From: Podarcis pityusensis
Taxonomy: Eukaryota
Reading direction: 5' to 3' (one strand)
Assembly: GCA_964106645.2 (NCBI GenBank)
Contig: OZ067046.1
DNA length: 64,000 nucleotides
Shown: positions 44,375 to 54,894 of the stretch, piece after piece
Layout: the number at the start of each line of letters is the position of its first letter
Position numbering within the stretch: position 1 is the stretch's first letter
The notes under the pieces: generated by a model
Databases searched by the model: none
Told to the model about the DNA's origin: nothing
The model's input: only the letters and a program-made list of their open reading frames with translations
Made by a program: the position numbers and the translations under genes

Positions 44375-44671
44375 CAGTCGTGCCCTGCAAGACGAATGCC
44401 TCGCAAGACGAAAAACTCGCTAGACGAAAGAGTTTTCCGTTTTTTGAGTCGTTCCACAAGACGAATTTCCCTATGGGCTTGCTTCGCAAGATGAAACGTC
44501 TTGCGAGTTCTTGCGAGTTTGTTTCCTTTTTCTTAAAGCCGCTAAGCCGTTAATAGCCGCTAAGCCGCTAATAGCCGCTAAGCCGCTAATAGCCGTGCTT
44601 CGCAAGACGAAAAAACCGCAAGACGAAGAGACTCACGGAATGGATTAATTTCGTCTTGTGAGGCACCACTG
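44375..44671. mobile_element. Tc1/mariner MITE family B, inverted relative to 25569
   Basis: Near-identical reverse complement of 25569-25847; TA TSD. Confidence 0.9.
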
Positions 44672-48326: not shown

Positions 48327-49082
48327 TGTCAGAGTTGCTTCCAGATCCTAGCTCACAGAGGATCACGCTAGCCAGCGATCATTAAATAAAAGTCTTTATT
48401 GAGTTACAGTTTCCATTCTCAAGCTGCTGCGTGCAACCCTACGTCTAATGGTTAGATCGGCGAAGCTCCATCTGAGTCTCCGCCCCTTGTACACCAACTT
48501 AATATCCTAGCCTTGCTCCACCTTTTCCGCCTGACTGTTCTTCTCTGGGTCCCTCTGCCCCCCGGGGTCTCTTCCTTCCGGGATTCCGCTGACGCTGACC
48601 CCCCTGACTCTTCTCCCTCCTTTCGGCAGGCTTTAGGACCTGGCTCCCTTTCCGGGCTGCCTACTGCGCCACCTTCCTGTGCATTTGAACTTGTCGCGCG
48701 CGCCCAACCTTCCACCTTCCGTCTGACCGTTTCTTCGCTCCCCGATGGAGGTGTGGCCACTCCTGACTCGTGCCCTCCCCCCTGTTGTGAGCTGCCAGCG
48801 CTTGATCCCTGGCGCCCTTCCTCTTCCCTGCTCTCTGGCGGTGACGCTGGTCCCGATTTCCAACTGCTCCCCTCTGAGTCCCCTCTGGCTCTATCTTCCT
48901 GGGGTGTCCCCCTAGGCTCCCCCCTTGCCCTGGCCACTGGTGCTCCTTTCTGTGAATCTTCTGATTCACTGGAAAGACTCGGAGATCTCGGGTCGTCGTC
49001 ATCACTCATCTTTTCTTCTGCCTCCTCCCCCTCGCTCTCTGTTTCCTCCCTTGCCCTTGCCTCTGCTCCTGAACCCCTGACA
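48327..49082 (-). repeat. 3' LTR (756 bp)
   Basis: Direct repeat of 54133-54894; by eye differs only by one A/G substitution and a 6-bp indel. Confidence 0.97.
48395..48400 (-). terminator. LTR polyadenylation signal AATAAA (copy in 5' LTR at 54201-54206)
   Basis: Minus-strand AATAAA about 50 nt downstream of the pol stop, near the LTR end. Confidence 0.75.
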
Positions 49083-52000
49083 TCCATCCCCCCCTCGAAG
49101 CCCCCTCTTCCCCCCTCCCCTCCTTCCGGTGCGGGATCTGGGTGCTGCTGTGTCAGGGGGACGAATGTCGGATACAGTTCGCTTCCCGTGGCGGGCCGCC
49201 ATCCGAAGTCTTCCGGTTCTTCCTCCCTGCTCTCGTTGACGACGGTCACCTCCGCTTCCATCTCTGTGCCGCCGTGCTCGAAACCCGGGTCGTCCCCGAA
49301 AACGTCCATGTCCGTCTCTCCCTCGTTGCCTTCTGGAGACGTTGCTCGTCCTGGACCCTCCAGCCACCTTCTGCGGAACTGCTCCTCTGGTCGATCATCC
49401 CACCAATACGAGGGTTCTGAAGCAGATCCCGAGGGTGACCCCTCCGGGGAACGGGCGTCTCGTGTCGGTTCCTCGTCCGAGTCGAACCCCCGGAACGTGC
49501 TGGCTGAAAGCGTGGGCGTGAAAAGCCAGTCGTCGAAAAAGTCTGCTGGCATTGGCCTATGTGGGAAGAGGGCATGAAACTCTTCTTTGAGCAGAGGTTC
49601 GTCTAAAGCGTAGCCCGGCACCCAGCTGTTGGCACTGGCCGGGGTGCCCTCCTTGGCGAGAAGGTATTCTACCCCCTCTTCCCCCCATCTGGAGTCCAAA
49701 ATCTCCGTGACTTCGTTGATGCGCTCCTCCTGTGCCACTCCCCCTTGCCCGGTTCTCTCTCGGAGCGGACCCGGTGCCGTTCCTGGTTCCTGAAACCTGT
49801 GAGGTGCCTTGTAGGGAGTGAGCACCGATCTGTGGAACACCGGATGCATTCTGGAACCCTCCGGAAGAGCCAGCCTGAAAGCCACCGGGTTGACCTGTTC
49901 TTCGACTTGGTAGGGCCCCAGTTGTTTATGCCCTAGTTTCTTCTTCGCCAACGACCTGGCCGGCACTGCGTGGGCTGCTAACCAGACCCAGTCTCCCACA
50001 TGGATCTCTTCGCCAACCCTTCTGTGTTTGTCCGCATGTATCTTGTATGCGTGTTTAGCCAGCTCCAGGTGCCGCCGCAGCTGATCGTGGACCTCCTGCA
50101 ACTCCGACGCGAACGCATCTGCTGTCTGCGGCTCCCCCTCCCCCATTCTTTCCAGTCCCGGGAAGGTTCTGGGGTACCTCCCGTTGTTGGCGAAGAACGG
50201 CGTGACCCCCGTGGACACGTGCTTCGTGTTGTTGTAGGCGAACTCGGCGAGAGGCAGGTAATCCACCCACGTCGCAGGCTGTTGATTCGCATAACATCTC
50301 AGGTACTGCTGCATGATGGCATTGACCCGCTCCGCTTGCCCGTTGGTCTGCGGGTGTCTAGCCGACGCCAGGTTGATCTTGACGTTCAGGAAGCCCATCA
50401 GCCTCTGCCAGAAGTTCGAGATGAACTGTCGCCCTCGGTCGGACAGAATAGACCGCGGCAGACCGTGAACCTTGAACACGTGGTCTATGAACAGTTTGGC
50501 GGTTTGTTCCGCCGTGGCCACCTTCGCACACGGAATGAAATGTGCCATCTTGGAGAACAAGTCCACCACCACCAGCACAGCCGTCTTGCCCCTCGAGCTG
50601 GGCAGATCCGTGACAAAGTCCAGGGCCACTCTCTCCCATGGTTCGAACGGAGTTTGCAGCGGTTCCAGCAGTCCGGCCGGCGGTCTGTGCACTGGTTTGG
50701 CCCTCTGGCAGGTGTCACACCTCGCCACGTAGTCCGCGACTTCCCCTCTCATTCCGGGCCACCAGAAGTCTCTGGCTACTAATTCCACCGTCTTCTCCTT
50801 GCCAAAGTGCCCGGCAGTGGGCGCGTCGTGCAGCTGCTGCAGTACCTTGGCGCGAAGTTCGTCTCCCGGCACGTAGATGGCCCCTTTACGGATGAGCAAA
50901 CCATCTCGCAGCTGGAACTCGTCGGTCGCTGCCGTGCCCCTGTGCACCTCTGCCATCTTTGCTTGCGCGAAGGAGTCATCCTGCAACGCTCGTCGCACCG
51001 CATCCAGGTCAACTGTTGCCGCCGCGCACGCCCACACTGTCGGTGCAAAGATGTGCATGGCGGCCGCTGGCGTTGCCTCCTCCAGATACTGTGGCTTACG
51101 GGAGAGAGCATCCGCCATGATGTTGGTGTCCCCCGGGACATATTCTATTCGGAAGTCGAAATTCGCAAAGAACTCAGCCCAACGTATCTGCCTCTGGTTC
51201 AGGAACTGTGCCGTGCGCCAGTGCTCTAGATTCTTGTGGTCCGTGCAGACCTGCACCGTGTGCTTGGCGCCGATCAGGAAGTGCCTCCACGCTTTGAACG
51301 CTGCATGAATGGCCAGCAACTCCCTGTCCCAGATGGTGTAGTTCTGTTCGGACTTGCTGAGCTTCCTTGAATAAAACGCTCCCGGCCTCCAAACCCCCTG
51401 CGGGTCTTTCTGCAGCAGGACTGCTCCCACGGCTCTGTCCGAAGCGTCTGTCTCCACCCTCATCGGCCTGCTGGGGTTGACATGAAGCAGCTGCTCTTCC
51501 GATGCGAAGAGACGCTTGAGTGCCTGAAAGGACTGCTCCGCCTGCTCTGTCCAGATGAACTTCTTTTTCTTGGAGCTGAGCGTGTCCGTGATGGCCGCTG
51601 TCTGCATCGCAAAGCCTTTGATAAACTTGCGATAGAAGTTCGCGAAGCCGACAAACCGTTGGACCTCCTTCCGGTTGCGTGGGCTTTTCCAATCCAACAC
51701 TGCTCGGACCTTGGCGCTGTCCATGGCGAGCCCTTTATCAGACAACTTGTAGCCCAGGAAATCCACCTCCGTCACGTCGAATTGGCACTTCTCCAGCTTG
51801 GCGTAAAGCCTATGTTGCTGTAGCCTGCTCAGCACTTCCTTGACGTGTCTGTCATGCTCCTGCTGCGATTCCGAAAAGATCAGGATGTCATCCAAGAAAC
51901 AGACGCACGTCTTGTAGAGGAGCCCCGCCAACACGTGATGCATGAAAGCTTGAAAAACGTGGGAGCCATTTTGCAATCCAAAAGGCATAACTCTATATTC

Positions 52001-53023
52001 GTAGGTGCCCAGGGGCGTGAACATGGCTGTCTTCCACTCATCTCCTTCCCGCATGCGAATGAGGTTGTATGCCCCTCGCAGGTCCAACTTGGTGAACACT
52101 CTGCCCTTCCGTACCTTTGCGAGGAGGTCGTCGATTCGGGGCATGGGGAAGTCCGATGGCTTGGTCACACTGTTCAAGATGCGAAAGTCCACTACAAGTC
52201 TTTTTTGGGGCGTGTCCCGCTTCTTAACAAAGAATACCGGACTGCCCCCCGCTGCCTTGGACTCTCGGATGAAACCGCGCTCCAAATTATGATCTATGAA
52301 CTCTTTGAGTTCCTGCAGTTCGTCCTCAGACATGGAATACAGCTTCCCTTTGGGCAGCGCCGCCCCCGGCAGCAGGTCAATTTTGCAGTCATATGGTCTG
52401 TGGGGGGGTAGCCTGTCTGCCTCCTTCTCGCAGAAAACCTCCAAAAATTCCGCGTACTTGTGGGGAACCGCTTGCAGCGTGCCTAGCTGCAGCTGTGACT
52501 CCTCTTCCCCTCCTTCCTGCCTGGGCACGATGCAGTGTTCAGCGCAAAAGGAAGAGCCGAAGGTCAGCTGCCTCTGGTACCAAGCCAGCGTCAGGCTGTG
52601 CTTGTCCAGCCAACTCATGCCCAATACAATGGGCGTGTCCGATAGTTGAGTGACATTGAAGCTGATGATTTCCCTGTGATTCCCAAGTCGCATCACCATT
52701 GGTGGCGTCTGCTTCACCACTTGCCCCCCTAGCAGCTCCCTGCCATCCACCGTGACAACCTGCAGGGGCAGCGTGGCAGGCAGCAACTGTATAGCGTGCC
52801 GGTCGACAAAGTCCTGCCCTATAAAGTCCGCATTGCTTCCGGAGTCAATGGTGATTGGCACGTCCATGGTGATTCCATTGGGCAGCTGGAGCGACGCGGT
52901 GAGCCTCACTACCGGTTTGGGCGGGAGGGGGTCCATGGGCTGTAAAATCTCTGGGGACTGCTTCACTGACACGTCTGGCTGGGCCCCAGTGCCTCTTCCT
53001 CCAACCAGACTCCGTCGTTTCCC
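48452..53023 (-). CDS. pol: Pol (-1 frame relative to gag): aspartic protease, RT, RNase H, integrase, GPY/F, degenerate chromodomain, long acidic tail extending into the 3' LTR
   Basis: IDSGS (52838-52846); KLDLRGAY, MPFGL, FLDD (51887-51898); VETDASD and DHKNL; H..H..CDTC zinc finger; DFVTDLP/SDRG/QAERVN DDE core; LGPYQV; no internal stop. Confidence 0.96.
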   Translation of the reverse strand, partial: GKRRSLVGGRGTGAQPDVSVKQSPEILQPMDPLPPKPVVRLTASLQLPNGITMDVPITIDSGSNADFIGQDFVDRHAIQLLPATLPLQVVTVDGRELLGGQVVKQTPPMVMRLGNHREIISFNVTQLSDTPIVLGMSWLDKHSLTLAWYQRQLTFGSSFCAEHCIVPRQEGGEEESQLQLGTLQAVPHKYAEFLEVFCEKEADRLPPHRPYDCKIDLLPGAALPKGKLYSMSEDELQELKEFIDHNLERGFIRESKAAGGSPVFFVKKRDTPQKRLVVDFRILNSVTKPSDFPMPRIDDLLAKVRKGRVFTKLDLRGAYNLIRMREGDEWKTAMFTPLGTYEYRVMPFGLQNGSHVFQAFMHHVLAGLLYKTCVCFLDDILIFSESQQEHDRHVKEVLSRLQQHRLYAKLEKCQFDVTEVDFLGYKLSDKGLAMDSAKVRAVLDWKSPRNRKEVQRFVGFANFYRKFIKGFAMQTAAITDTLSSKKKKFIWTEQAEQSFQALKRLFASEEQLLHVNPSRPMRVETDASDRAVGAVLLQKDPQGVWRPGAFYSRKLSKSEQNYTIWDRELLAIHAAFKAWRHFLIGAKHTVQVCTDHKNLEHWRTAQFLNQRQIRWAEFFANFDFRIEYVPGDTNIMADALSRKPQYLEEATPAAAMHIFAPTVWACAAATVDLDAVRRALQDDSFAQAKMAEVHRGTAATDEFQLRDGLLIRKGAIYVPGDELRAKVLQQLHDAPTAGHFGKEKTVELVARDFWWPGMRGEVADYVARCDTCQRAKPVHRPPAGLLEPLQTPFEPWERVALDFVTDLPSSRGKTAVLVVVDLFSKMAHFIPCAKVATAEQTAKLFIDHVFKVHGLPRSILSDRGRQFISNFWQRLMGFLNVKINLASARHPQTNGQAERVNAIMQQYLRCYANQQPATWVDYLPLAEFAYNNTKHVSTGVTPFFANNGRYPRTFPGLERMGEGEPQTADAFASELQEVHDQLRRHLELAKHAYKIHADKHRRVGEEIHVGDWVWLAAHAVPARSLAKKKLGHKQLGPYQVEEQVNPVAFRLALPEGSRMHPVFHRSVLTPYKAPHRFQEPGTAPGPLRERTGQGGVAQEERINEVTEILDSRWGEEGVEYLLAKEGTPASANSWVPGYALDEPLLKEEFHALFPHRPMPADFFDDWLFTPTLSASTFRGFDSDEEPTRDARSPEGSPSGSASEPSYWWDDRPEEQFRRRWLEGPGRATSPEGNEGETDMDVFGDDPGFEHGGTEMEAEVTVVNESREEEPEDFGWRPATGSELYPTFVPLTQQHPDPAPEGGEGGRGGFEGGMDVRGSGAEARAREETESEGEEAEEKMSDDDDPRSPSLSSESEDSQKGAPVARARGEPRGTPQEDRARGDSEGSSWKSGPASPPESREEEGRQGSSAGSSQQGGGHESGVATPPSGSEETVRRKVEGWARATSSNAQEGGAVGSPEREPGPKACRKEGEESGGSASAESRKEETPGGRGTQRRTVRRKRWSKARILSWCTRGGDSDGASPI
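49083..49096 (-). promoter_or_regulatory. Polypurine tract
   Basis: Minus strand GAGGGGGGGATGGA directly abuts TGTCAG of the 3' LTR. Confidence 0.9.
52951..53023 (-). promoter_or_regulatory. -1 programmed ribosomal frameshift signal (G GGA AAC + predicted H-type pseudoknot)
   Basis: Slippery heptamer at 53017-53023 in gag frame; 6-nt spacer; stem 1 GUCUGGUUGG/CCAGCCAGAC; stem 2 CUGGGG/CCCCAG; the -1 frame is the pol frame. Confidence 0.88.
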
Positions 53024-54039
53024 TGCTGTGGTTGTCCTTGCTGCGTTGCTGCAGTTACCATTGCTGAGGCTGCAGTGTGCTTGTGGAGCCTCTGGGGACA
53101 CTCTTTCGCCATATGCTGTGGATCATCGCAGATGTAACACTTCCTGTTCCCTCTAGGAGGCTTCGCTTTCACTGCTGCCGGTGCTAGGGCTCTGGCTGCT
53201 GACTGAGCCCTTGCACCTCCAACCTCCATAGGTTCCGCTCCTCCTCCTGGCGGAGGCGTGGATTGCGCACGCGCTGCTTCTCTGGGAAGGAAGGAGGAGC
53301 CCCTGGCTGGTTCGCGCCCTCCACGCCCTTCGCCACTGCTCCACGGACGTCCTTCCAGCCGCACCCCCACCGCCAGCGCCCTCTGAACGATCTCCTGCGT
53401 GGTCCGGGGTCTCTCCCCCCTCGCAATTTCATCTTTAACCGAGCCGTGCAATCCCTCCCAAAACAGGTCTCTTACAGGAGCCGAATCTCTGTCCCATTCC
53501 AGAGCACTGACCAAAGCGAAAAAGCGGGCATGGTACTGCCTTACGCTGGCCCTCCCTTGCTTCAGTCCATGTATCTGCTGCCGAGCAAGATCCACGTCAA
53601 TGCTTGACAAAAAGCACCCATCCATCGCTTTAATAAAGGCATCCGCATTTTGGAGCGCCGGATCCTTATCTCTCCACAAATTGCGCAGCCATGCTTTAGC
53701 ATCTCCATGCAAATGGGACATGATGAATCCCACCTTCTCTTGCTCATCTCTAAAGTCTTTGTTCAGCAGTTGCAGTGCACACATTACATCTGCTCTAAAG
53801 TTGGGGTACTGTTGCAAATTCCCATCGAAGTGAGAGACCAAACCGCCTGTTCGTCTCCCCAACCCAATCCCCTCCGGTTTGGGTGTCAGTTGCCCTTGCT
53901 TCGTAAGCACTTCCAACCTGACCTGGAGATCCCTGTAGGCGGCAGCTGCGTCCTCCTCTCTCTTCCTGGATGCAAGAGCCTCGGCATTCAGGCGCGACAC
54001 TGCTTCTCTGAGTTCCACTATCTGCTGTTCGGCCGTCAT
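52963..54039 (-). CDS. gag: Gag (358 aa from ATG 54039): coiled-coil-like N-terminus, retrotransposon capsid, EPMEVG motif, CCHC zinc knuckle
   Basis: First ATG in the ORF has context ACAACATGA; zinc knuckle CYICDDPQHMAKEC (53098-53139); EPMEVG resembles the EPMQ/E motif of PEG10/sushi-type Gags. Confidence 0.93.
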   Translation of the reverse strand: MTAEQQIVELREAVSRLNAEALASRKREEDAAAAYRDLQVRLEVLTKQGQLTPKPEGIGLGRRTGGLVSHFDGNLQQYPNFRADVMCALQLLNKDFRDEQEKVGFIMSHLHGDAKAWLRNLWRDKDPALQNADAFIKAMDGCFLSSIDVDLARQQIHGLKQGRASVRQYHARFFALVSALEWDRDSAPVRDLFWEGLHGSVKDEIARGERPRTTQEIVQRALAVGVRLEGRPWSSGEGRGGREPARGSSFLPREAARAQSTPPPGGGAEPMEVGGARAQSAARALAPAAVKAKPPRGNRKCYICDDPQHMAKECPQRLHKHTAASAMVTAATQQGQPQQGNDGVWLEEEALGPSQTCQ

Positions 54040-54118
54040 GTTGTCTGCCGTTCGTGAGCTCGCTAGTAGGCACCCGCTTTCTCTCCTCTCCGCGAGGCTG
54101 TAGATGCCCACAATTTAA

Positions 54119-54130
54119 CAGATGGAGCTT
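54119..54130 (-). promoter_or_regulatory. Primer-binding site, self-priming type (AAGCTCCATCTG)
   Basis: Starts 2 nt inside the 5' LTR end; no TGG; exact reverse complement of LTR segment 54269-54280. Confidence 0.88.
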
Positions 54131-54132
54131 AC

Positions 54133-54894
54133 TGTCAGAGTTGCTTCCAGATCCTAGCTCACAGAGGATCACGCTAGCCAGCGATCATTAAATAAAAGTC
54201 TTTATTGAGTTACAGTTTCCATTCTCAAGCTGCTGCGTGCAACCCTACGTCTAATGGTTAGATCGGCGAAGCTCCATCTGAGTCTCCGCCCCTTGTACAC
54301 CAACTTAATATCCTAGCCTTGCTCCACCTTTTCCGCCTGACTGTTCTTCTCTGGGTCCCTCTGCCCCCCGGGGTCTCTTCCTTCCGGGATTCCTCTGACG
54401 CTGACGCTGACCCCCCTGACTCTTCTCCCTCCTTTCGGCGGGCTTTAGGACCTGGCTCCCTTTCCGGGCTGCCTACTGCGCCACCTTCCTGTGCATTTGA
54501 ACTTGTCGCGCGCGCCCAACCTTCCACCTTCCGTCTGACCGTTTCTTCGCTCCCCGATGGAGGTGTGGCCACTCCTGACTCGTGCCCTCCCCCCTGTTGT
54601 GAGCTGCCAGCGCTTGATCCCTGGCGCCCTTCCTCTTCCCTGCTCTCTGGCGGTGACGCTGGTCCCGATTTCCAACTGCTCCCCTCTGAGTCCCCTCTGG
54701 CTCTATCTTCCTGGGGTGTCCCCCTAGGCTCCCCCCTTGCCCTGGCCACTGGTGCTCCTTTCTGTGAATCTTCTGATTCACTGGAAAGACTCGGAGATCT
54801 CGGGTCGTCGTCATCACTCATCTTTTCTTCTGCCTCCTCCCCCTCGCTCTCTGTTTCCTCCCTTGCCCTTGCCTCTGCTCCTGAACCCCTGACA
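54133..54894 (-). repeat. 5' LTR (762 bp)
   Basis: Direct repeat of 48327-49082; TG...CA ends with a 6-bp terminal inverted repeat. Confidence 0.97.
54280..54310 (-). promoter_or_regulatory. Predicted LTR core promoter: TATTAA box, GGGGCGG GC box, TSS near 54280
   Basis: TATTAA (54305-54310) lies 25-30 nt upstream of the first base of the self-primer; GC box at 54286-54292. Confidence 0.7.

Follow-up and report, generated by a model that had tools for sequence, protein, structure and literature searches.

Short motifs in integrase tails are known to recruit host chromatin proteins, as in the Ty5-Sir4 and MLV-BET interactions. In the available text of a recent review, the TND-interacting motif (TIM) is described as a helix followed by an acidic or phosphorylatable linker of 8-16 residues and an FxGF core (PMC9987994). 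According to the same text, FxGF is both carried and needed by all known LEDGF/HRP2 partners, several TIMs may occur in one protein (IWS1 and JPO2) and, among viral mimics of TND partners, only lentiviral integrase is named (PMC9987994). Group I (MAGGY) and group II chromoviruses have an SH3 domain and a chromodomain at the integrase C-terminus, as does the element described here. The aromatic cage positions of these chromodomains are given, in the part of the source available, as Y24, W45 and Y48 (PMC3350952).

The window (the whole stretch of DNA analysed, 64,000 nucleotides) contains, on the minus strand, a full-length LTR retrotransposon of the Ty3/Gypsy group, chromovirus type (48327..54894), with TG...CA ends and a 5-bp target-site duplication (GTTTG). 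All of the features that define Ty3/Gypsy elements (LTRs, target-site duplication, gag and the PR-RT-RH-IN order) are present. The 5' LTR (54133..54894, minus strand; 762 bp) and the 3' LTR (48327..49082, minus strand; 756 bp, mostly read through by the pol tail) are identical at 755 of 756 aligned bases and differ further by one 6-nt indel. The gag frame (52963..54114, minus strand; Retrotrans_gag, Ty3_capsid and a zinc knuckle) overlaps pol in a different frame. The open pol frame (48452..53122, minus strand; 1556 aa) encodes protease, RT, RNase H, integrase, a Tf2-type SH3 domain, the chromodomain and a 364-aa tail that extends into the 3' LTR. Approximately 630 nt of the 3' LTR are read through by the pol frame (48452-49082; also listed: 54258-54894), and the strand opposite the pol tail is itself open for 373 codons (48456-49577). 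The element is antisense within an intron of a Fat-type cadherin gene on the opposite strand, named FAT1 in an earlier note on this DNA. A short interspersed repeat with internal GCAAGACGAA units is found in an upstream intron (44381-44627). The element family is very young and large and is still amplifying; the 60 nt encoding the motif discussed below have 1,114 exact matches in the genome. The family, motif bin included, is covered on both strands by raw reads (three runs; similarity mostly 88-95%), and this coverage represents transcripts of the family, not protein.

The minus strand at 49469-49540 encodes FFDDWLF-TPTLSAST-FRGF-DSDEE. The earlier note had claimed a motif at 49469..49540, just after the integrase chromodomain, and the motif is present at exactly these coordinates, starting two residues past HRPMP, the closing residues of the chromodomain. 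FFDDWLF is encoded by 49520-49540 and FRGF by 49484-49495, the latter at residue 1210 of the 1556-aa Pol. A structure model predicts a short helix over ADFFDDWL (49520..49546, minus strand; helix 62-69 of the model), ending at the anchor Phe in the position of the TIM helix, with moderate confidence (block pLDDT 72); the linker and FRGF are modelled as disordered. The 8-residue linker TPTLSAST (49496..49519, minus strand) has no D/E (0/8) and five S/T (5/8), which agrees with the Ser/Thr-rich, non-acidic linker claimed earlier. The FRGF core and the DSDEE that follows it (49469..49495, minus strand) complete the motif, with x being R, H, Q, V, E or K across families. The predicted helix with its Phe anchor, the FRGF core and the 8-residue predicted disordered linker correspond to a TIM; this family has every TIM sequence feature except linker acidity, and sister families, in which the linkers are acidic, have all of them. 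Two other conserved stretches are found in the tail: a second aromatic block, Trp-rich SYWWDDRPEEQFRRRWLEGP (49352..49411, minus strand), is common to the subclade of this element only, and the block DMDVFGDDPGFEH (49274-49312), also conserved in the subclade, resembles a weak further TIM. When the 364-aa tail was shuffled, F-x7-10-FxGF arose in 0.45% of sequences and bare FxGF in 4.3%; shuffling the whole Pol gave 4.7% and 24%, respectively. With this modest chance probability, the motif in one sequence alone is only suggestive.

All five Podarcis muralis relatives (70-91% identity; proteins found among 347 candidates) keep DDWLFTPTLSASTF[RHQ]GF. With its nearest relatives and an identical PSIP1 exon both in P. 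muralis, the host is a lacertid lizard and probably a Podarcis. In a sister family the motif is found at the same offset despite a local identity of approximately 30%, with the helix Phe and F-x-G-F invariant; across 13 aligned rows, the helix Phe and the F, G and F of the core are invariant and x is variable. Sister families (approximately 50% identity) carry one or two motif copies with acidic linkers. In P0009, the first copy (WEEQF-ATTDEEEED-FVGF) has the same offset as the motif of this element and the second (WEAVF-ESTDDDSSS-FRGF) lies 46 residues further on; P0008 keeps the second-site copy only, and the subclade of this element has no second copy. A broader search covered 149 representatives, 146 of which were anchored on the chromodomain and 91 of which had a tail of at least 25 aa. 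FxGF was found within the first 100 tail residues in 4 of these 91: P0008, P0009 and P0010, which are the closest relatives, and one apparent chimera. The FxGF of P0130 falls in a part of a chimeric prediction that appears to derive from the host, and it was excluded from the motif counts. The distant chromoviruses among the same 91 have no FxGF motif after the chromodomain.

Within the host genome, the motif pattern is present in 30/30 young loci, 25/25 loci of an older subfamily (in which the linker is mostly TPTLSDST) and 56/60 sister loci; of the 59 sister loci that could be anchored, 58 have FxGF at the first site and 58 at the second. These within-family counts lean high because the loci were fetched with motif-containing queries. 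The between-family comparison (approximately 30% local identity, synonymous codons) is independent of such queries. Between families, synonymous differences are seen in the codons for F, G and F, and a constraint acting on the DNA was rejected on this ground. The check proposed in the earlier note, whether FxGF is conserved while its flanks vary, came out in favour of the motif (5/5 relatives, and the sister family at the same offset). The accompanying caution that FxGF may arise by chance is modestly borne out by the shuffles for a single sequence and fails for the clade: the motif is kept, with free x and synonymous codons, across families approximately 50% identical and is therefore not a chance occurrence.

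A quick IQ-TREE tree was built from 49 rows comprising the integrase end, SH3 domain and chromodomain, with the motif excluded from the alignment. All motif carriers fall in one 18-row lacertid clade (SH-aLRT 100, quick search), where an intact F-x8/9-FxGF occurs once or more in 16 of the 18 rows; of the other two, one stops short of the tail and the other has decayed. No F-x8/9-FxGF was seen in the 31 outgroup rows, many of which have short tails; these rows also include squamate elements with long acidic tails, one of them from the host genome (L173). This chromovirus (L173:4985-9680; G000 C6:25.07 Mb) adjoins a young insertion and serves as a control; its chromodomain is canonical (Y/W/Y) and its acidic tail has no FxGF.

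The chromodomain of the window element (49547..49720, minus strand) is predicted to have an intact fold, and comparison with L173 indicates that its three cage aromatics are replaced. Here, at the integrase C-terminus, the modelled fold exceeds a pLDDT of 90, and its structural matches are HP1/CBX chromodomains (rmsd about 1.3 A, E-values about 5e-3, none under 1e-3); the Pfam Chromo model gave no match in this Pol. The cage positions are Y, W and Y in L173 and N, K and T in this element, which thus lacks the group I cage Y24/W45/Y48. In the sisters (loci L034-L093) the positions are mostly non-aromatic/W/E, with two residues lost and the W45 equivalent kept. Group II chromodomains likewise keep the W45 equivalent alone (PMC3350952, in the part available); they are described there as plant-only, whereas the sister families are from lizards. 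Unlike the chromoviruses of groups I and II, this subclade retains none of the three cage aromatics, and it has gained a 364-aa tail with the motif. The earlier guess that gain of the motif accompanies chromodomain decay is in line with the degenerate cage of the carrier clade; the gain and the decay amount to one evolutionary event and therefore provide no statistical correlation.

The young copies were mapped by collecting, across the whole genome, every junction of one LTR-end variant that has an AT flank; of these 97 junctions, 92 are on the 20 large contigs. Thirty-nine of the 92 young junctions lie within 1 Mb of a chromosome end (2.7% expected; a 16-fold excess), 45 lie within 2 Mb and 47 are dispersed; without C2, 29 of 75 lie within 1 Mb of an end. 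The AT flank could favour AT-rich repeats, but in an independent G-flank sample 36 junctions within 1 Mb of an end were counted by hand among the first 100 of 159 matches. The older subfamily is also end-enriched (18/53), and the sister family, which is older, is much less so (8 within 1 Mb among the first 75 of 150 matches). Among the same first 75 of 150, 28 sister-family matches are on C19 (2.5% of the genome), which is possibly the W chromosome.

The dense clusters consist of copies nested in one another and in a 502-bp AT-rich satellite. This satellite is heavily invaded at G000 C1:138.88-139.03 Mb, C1:139.6-139.66 Mb and C2:0.1-0.53 Mb, with further sites at the ends of C5, C6, C10, C11 and C13 and at C19:10.4-10.6 Mb. 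With 40 of 1,515 candidates scored, two satellite blocks of about 0.2 Mb hold 15 of the 58 C1 copies, and a junction on C19 adjoins an interstitial satellite block. On each of seven chromosomes, one end bears the satellite, and most Lacertini are reported to have 36 acrocentric chromosomes (PMC10654178, in the part available). The satellite is therefore likely to be pericentromeric, and we infer its centromeric nature from this arrangement; the main text of a centromere atlas preprint does not mention lizards. Among 40 terminal or unplaced 2-kb flanks, the satellite is present in 8 and the element itself in 13. Two near-identical pairs were found among 40 terminal junction flanks, 36 of which have no near-identical partner, and L096-L097 contain a tandem repeat of element plus flank. 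The near-identical pairs indicate that some of the terminal clustering is duplication rather than insertion.

A model that starts from the observed motif, its conservation, the loss of the cage and the pile-up of copies at chromosome ends would run as follows. The helix-linker-FxGF motif would stay on the mature integrase and dock on the TND (integrase-binding domain) of host LEDGF or HDGFL2, where phosphorylated Ser/Thr in the linker, or SDEE, would stand in for acidic residues. The PWWP domain of LEDGF/HDGFL2 would hold the complex on chromatin, replacing the cage-less chromodomain. HDGFL2 would be the reader that sets the destination, which in the young family would be silent, satellite-rich chromatin rather than gene bodies. 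Exons of two LEDGF-family genes are present in the host genome: the PSIP1 exon is identical to that of P. muralis, and the gene on C18 was read as HDGFL2. Human HDGFRP2 showed a preference for peptides with H3K9me3 or H3K27me3 and was found associated with both CBX1 and POGZ (PMC4797281, in the part available), which would reconcile a TIM with insertion into satellite. In conflict with this heterochromatin route, HRP2 is placed at active genes, as a reader of H3K36me, in the available text of the review on TIMs (PMC9987994).

The motif of this clade, judged by its sequence, probably binds a TND. The full chain from the motif, through the TND of LEDGF or HDGFL2, to an integration complex tethered to silent, satellite-rich chromatin is given a probability of about 0.4. 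It is tentatively proposed that the clade swapped its histone reader for a mimic of a host TIM, hijacking by an unrelated route the LEDGF/HDGFL2 domain used by HIV, and that a phospho-switchable motif homes the young family on pericentromeric satellite. Several observations tell against this chain. Enrichment at chromosome ends is far weaker in the sister family despite its better acidic motifs, although that family is also older. Roughly half of the young junctions are dispersed, only 8/40 terminal flanks touch satellite and some terminal copies are duplicates. A common phosphorylation consensus is S/T-x-x-D/E. The linker of this family has neither an acidic residue nor any such site, and the affinity of the unphosphorylated motif may consequently be low.

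A somewhat unlikely alternative is that the motif binds LEDGF/HDGFL2 for chromatin capture, nuclear retention or integration efficiency without any choice of site, the end pile-up resulting from the cage-less chromodomain, weak selection in repeats or local duplication. All of the motif evidence fits this explanation, as do the mostly dispersed copies of the sister family with its two acidic motifs and the existence of duplicated terminal copies. Plant group II chromodomains retain an association with heterochromatin despite the absence of Y24 and, in most cases, of Y48 (PMC3350952, in the part available); this element, unlike group II, also lacks the W45 equivalent. Selection alone would hardly produce a 16-fold excess among copies whose LTRs are nearly identical, and the 36/40 terminal flanks that have no near-identical partner argue against duplication as its source.

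It is distinctly unlikely that the acidic-aromatic motif instead binds another partner (a histone dimer, another short-motif reader or a different TND) or packs onto its own chromodomain. FxGF is short, and the modelled helix begins right at the end of the chromodomain. A PDB search with the motif profile returned two sequences at E-values of 10 or less, neither of them significant: the best is an unrelated citrate synthase (E-value: 0.1) and the other, which accords with a TIM, is the KMT2A peptide of the LEDGF complex 2MSR (E-value: 1.8). In the latter, EDEQFLGFGSDEE aligns with ASTFRGFDSDEE of the motif. A PDB sequence search with the two-motif stretch of the sister family gave a single unrelated match only. 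However, the full pattern (helix Phe, 8-9 residue spacer, F-x-G-F with free x) recurs approximately 46 residues away among different flanks, P0008 keeps the second site alone, and FRGF is modelled as disordered rather than packed; these points count against such a partner or packing.

The destination proposed in the earlier note, integration by way of LEDGF into H3K36me3-marked transcribed gene bodies as for HIV, is improbable. It accounts for the motif evidence, LEDGF prefers active marks (in the literature as available) and the copy in the window is intronic. A single 10-kb flank was taken for each of 40 of the 47 dispersed junctions (4 on C19, 2 on C20 and 1 on C13 were dropped) and compared with 40 sites drawn at random from the same chromosomes; in each region, the top three exon candidates were scanned against Pfam (120 insertion and 114 control candidates, with one control having none). 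Host-gene domains (E-value < 1e-3) were found in 5/40 insertion flanks and 9/40 controls (Fisher p 0.38, at low power), or in 6 and 10 when borderline matches are included; exons are within 10 kb of dispersed insertions no more often than of random sites. This test is insensitive, gauges nearness to exons rather than transcription and cannot undo purifying selection, by which a genic bias could be hidden. No difference in GC, CpG ratio, strand skew or exon-candidate scores was seen between the 40 insertion flanks and the controls (38/40 usable for composition); strand skew is a weak proxy, since introns of the window's own gene gave mixed signs. Furthermore, approximately 40% of junctions are at repeat-rich chromosome ends. 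The intron of FAT1, which the earlier note considered consistent with targeting, is one among many dispersed sites and was rejected as evidence on targeting. Of the earlier model, then, the conserved motif, the acidic versions in the sisters and the cage-degenerate clade stand, and the gene-body destination is not supported. Two of the dispersed insertions have an endogenous retrovirus piece no more than 10 kb away (L161 and L180; an MLV-type integrase C-terminus and Gag p24).

A chance match or a functionless relic in this family, to which the pattern's occurrence in about 5% of shuffled Pol sequences, the loss of acidic linker residues and the absence of a second copy in the subclade might point, is largely refuted by the conservation of the motif, with free x and synonymous codon changes, across families approximately 50% identical and in a family that is still amplifying.

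If tethering to silent chromatin through LEDGF or HDGFL2 is correct, a linear TIM mimic in a retrotransposon would represent convergent capture of the host hub of lentiviruses (LEDGF/HRP2), and a highly amplified squamate element would have its first concrete hypothesis of targeting. The elements form a natural series, which runs from an intact cage without a motif, through a partial cage with two acidic motifs, to a lost cage with a single Ser/Thr motif. This series could help to settle whether HDGFL2 reads active or silent chromatin and to explain the invasion of lizard centromeric satellite. In the literature searched (subscription papers and supplements, including motif screens, were outside its coverage), there is no report of a TIM or FxGF motif in a retrotransposon integrase.

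The TIMs/IBMs of KMT2A, IWS1, JPO2, POGZ, MED1 and CDC7-ASK share with this motif a helix, a hydrophobic anchor, an 8-9 residue linker and FxGF, and FRGFDSDEE of this element resembles FLGFGSDEE of KMT2A. Acidic linkers and tandem copies are further shared between known TIMs and the sister families. Unlike known TIMs, the motif of this element is on the tail of a retroelement integrase and has a linker that is Ser/Thr-rich rather than acidic. The same host domain would be employed as in lentiviral integrase-LEDGF/HRP2 tethering. HIV integrase, however, binds LEDGF by a pre-folded surface (PMC6382798, in the part available) and not by a disordered IBM as proposed here, and HIV goes to active gene bodies, whereas no genic excess was seen for this element. 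In the Ty1-AC40 system, as far as the available source describes it, a short integrase-tail motif recruits a host protein, as proposed here, with a partner of a different class. Integrase-tail motifs that recruit host proteins are therefore already known; compared with the Ty1, Ty5 and MLV cases, the partner here is a putative TND and the element is a vertebrate Ty3/Gypsy element, and the TIM-type version of such a motif in a retrotransposon appears to be new.
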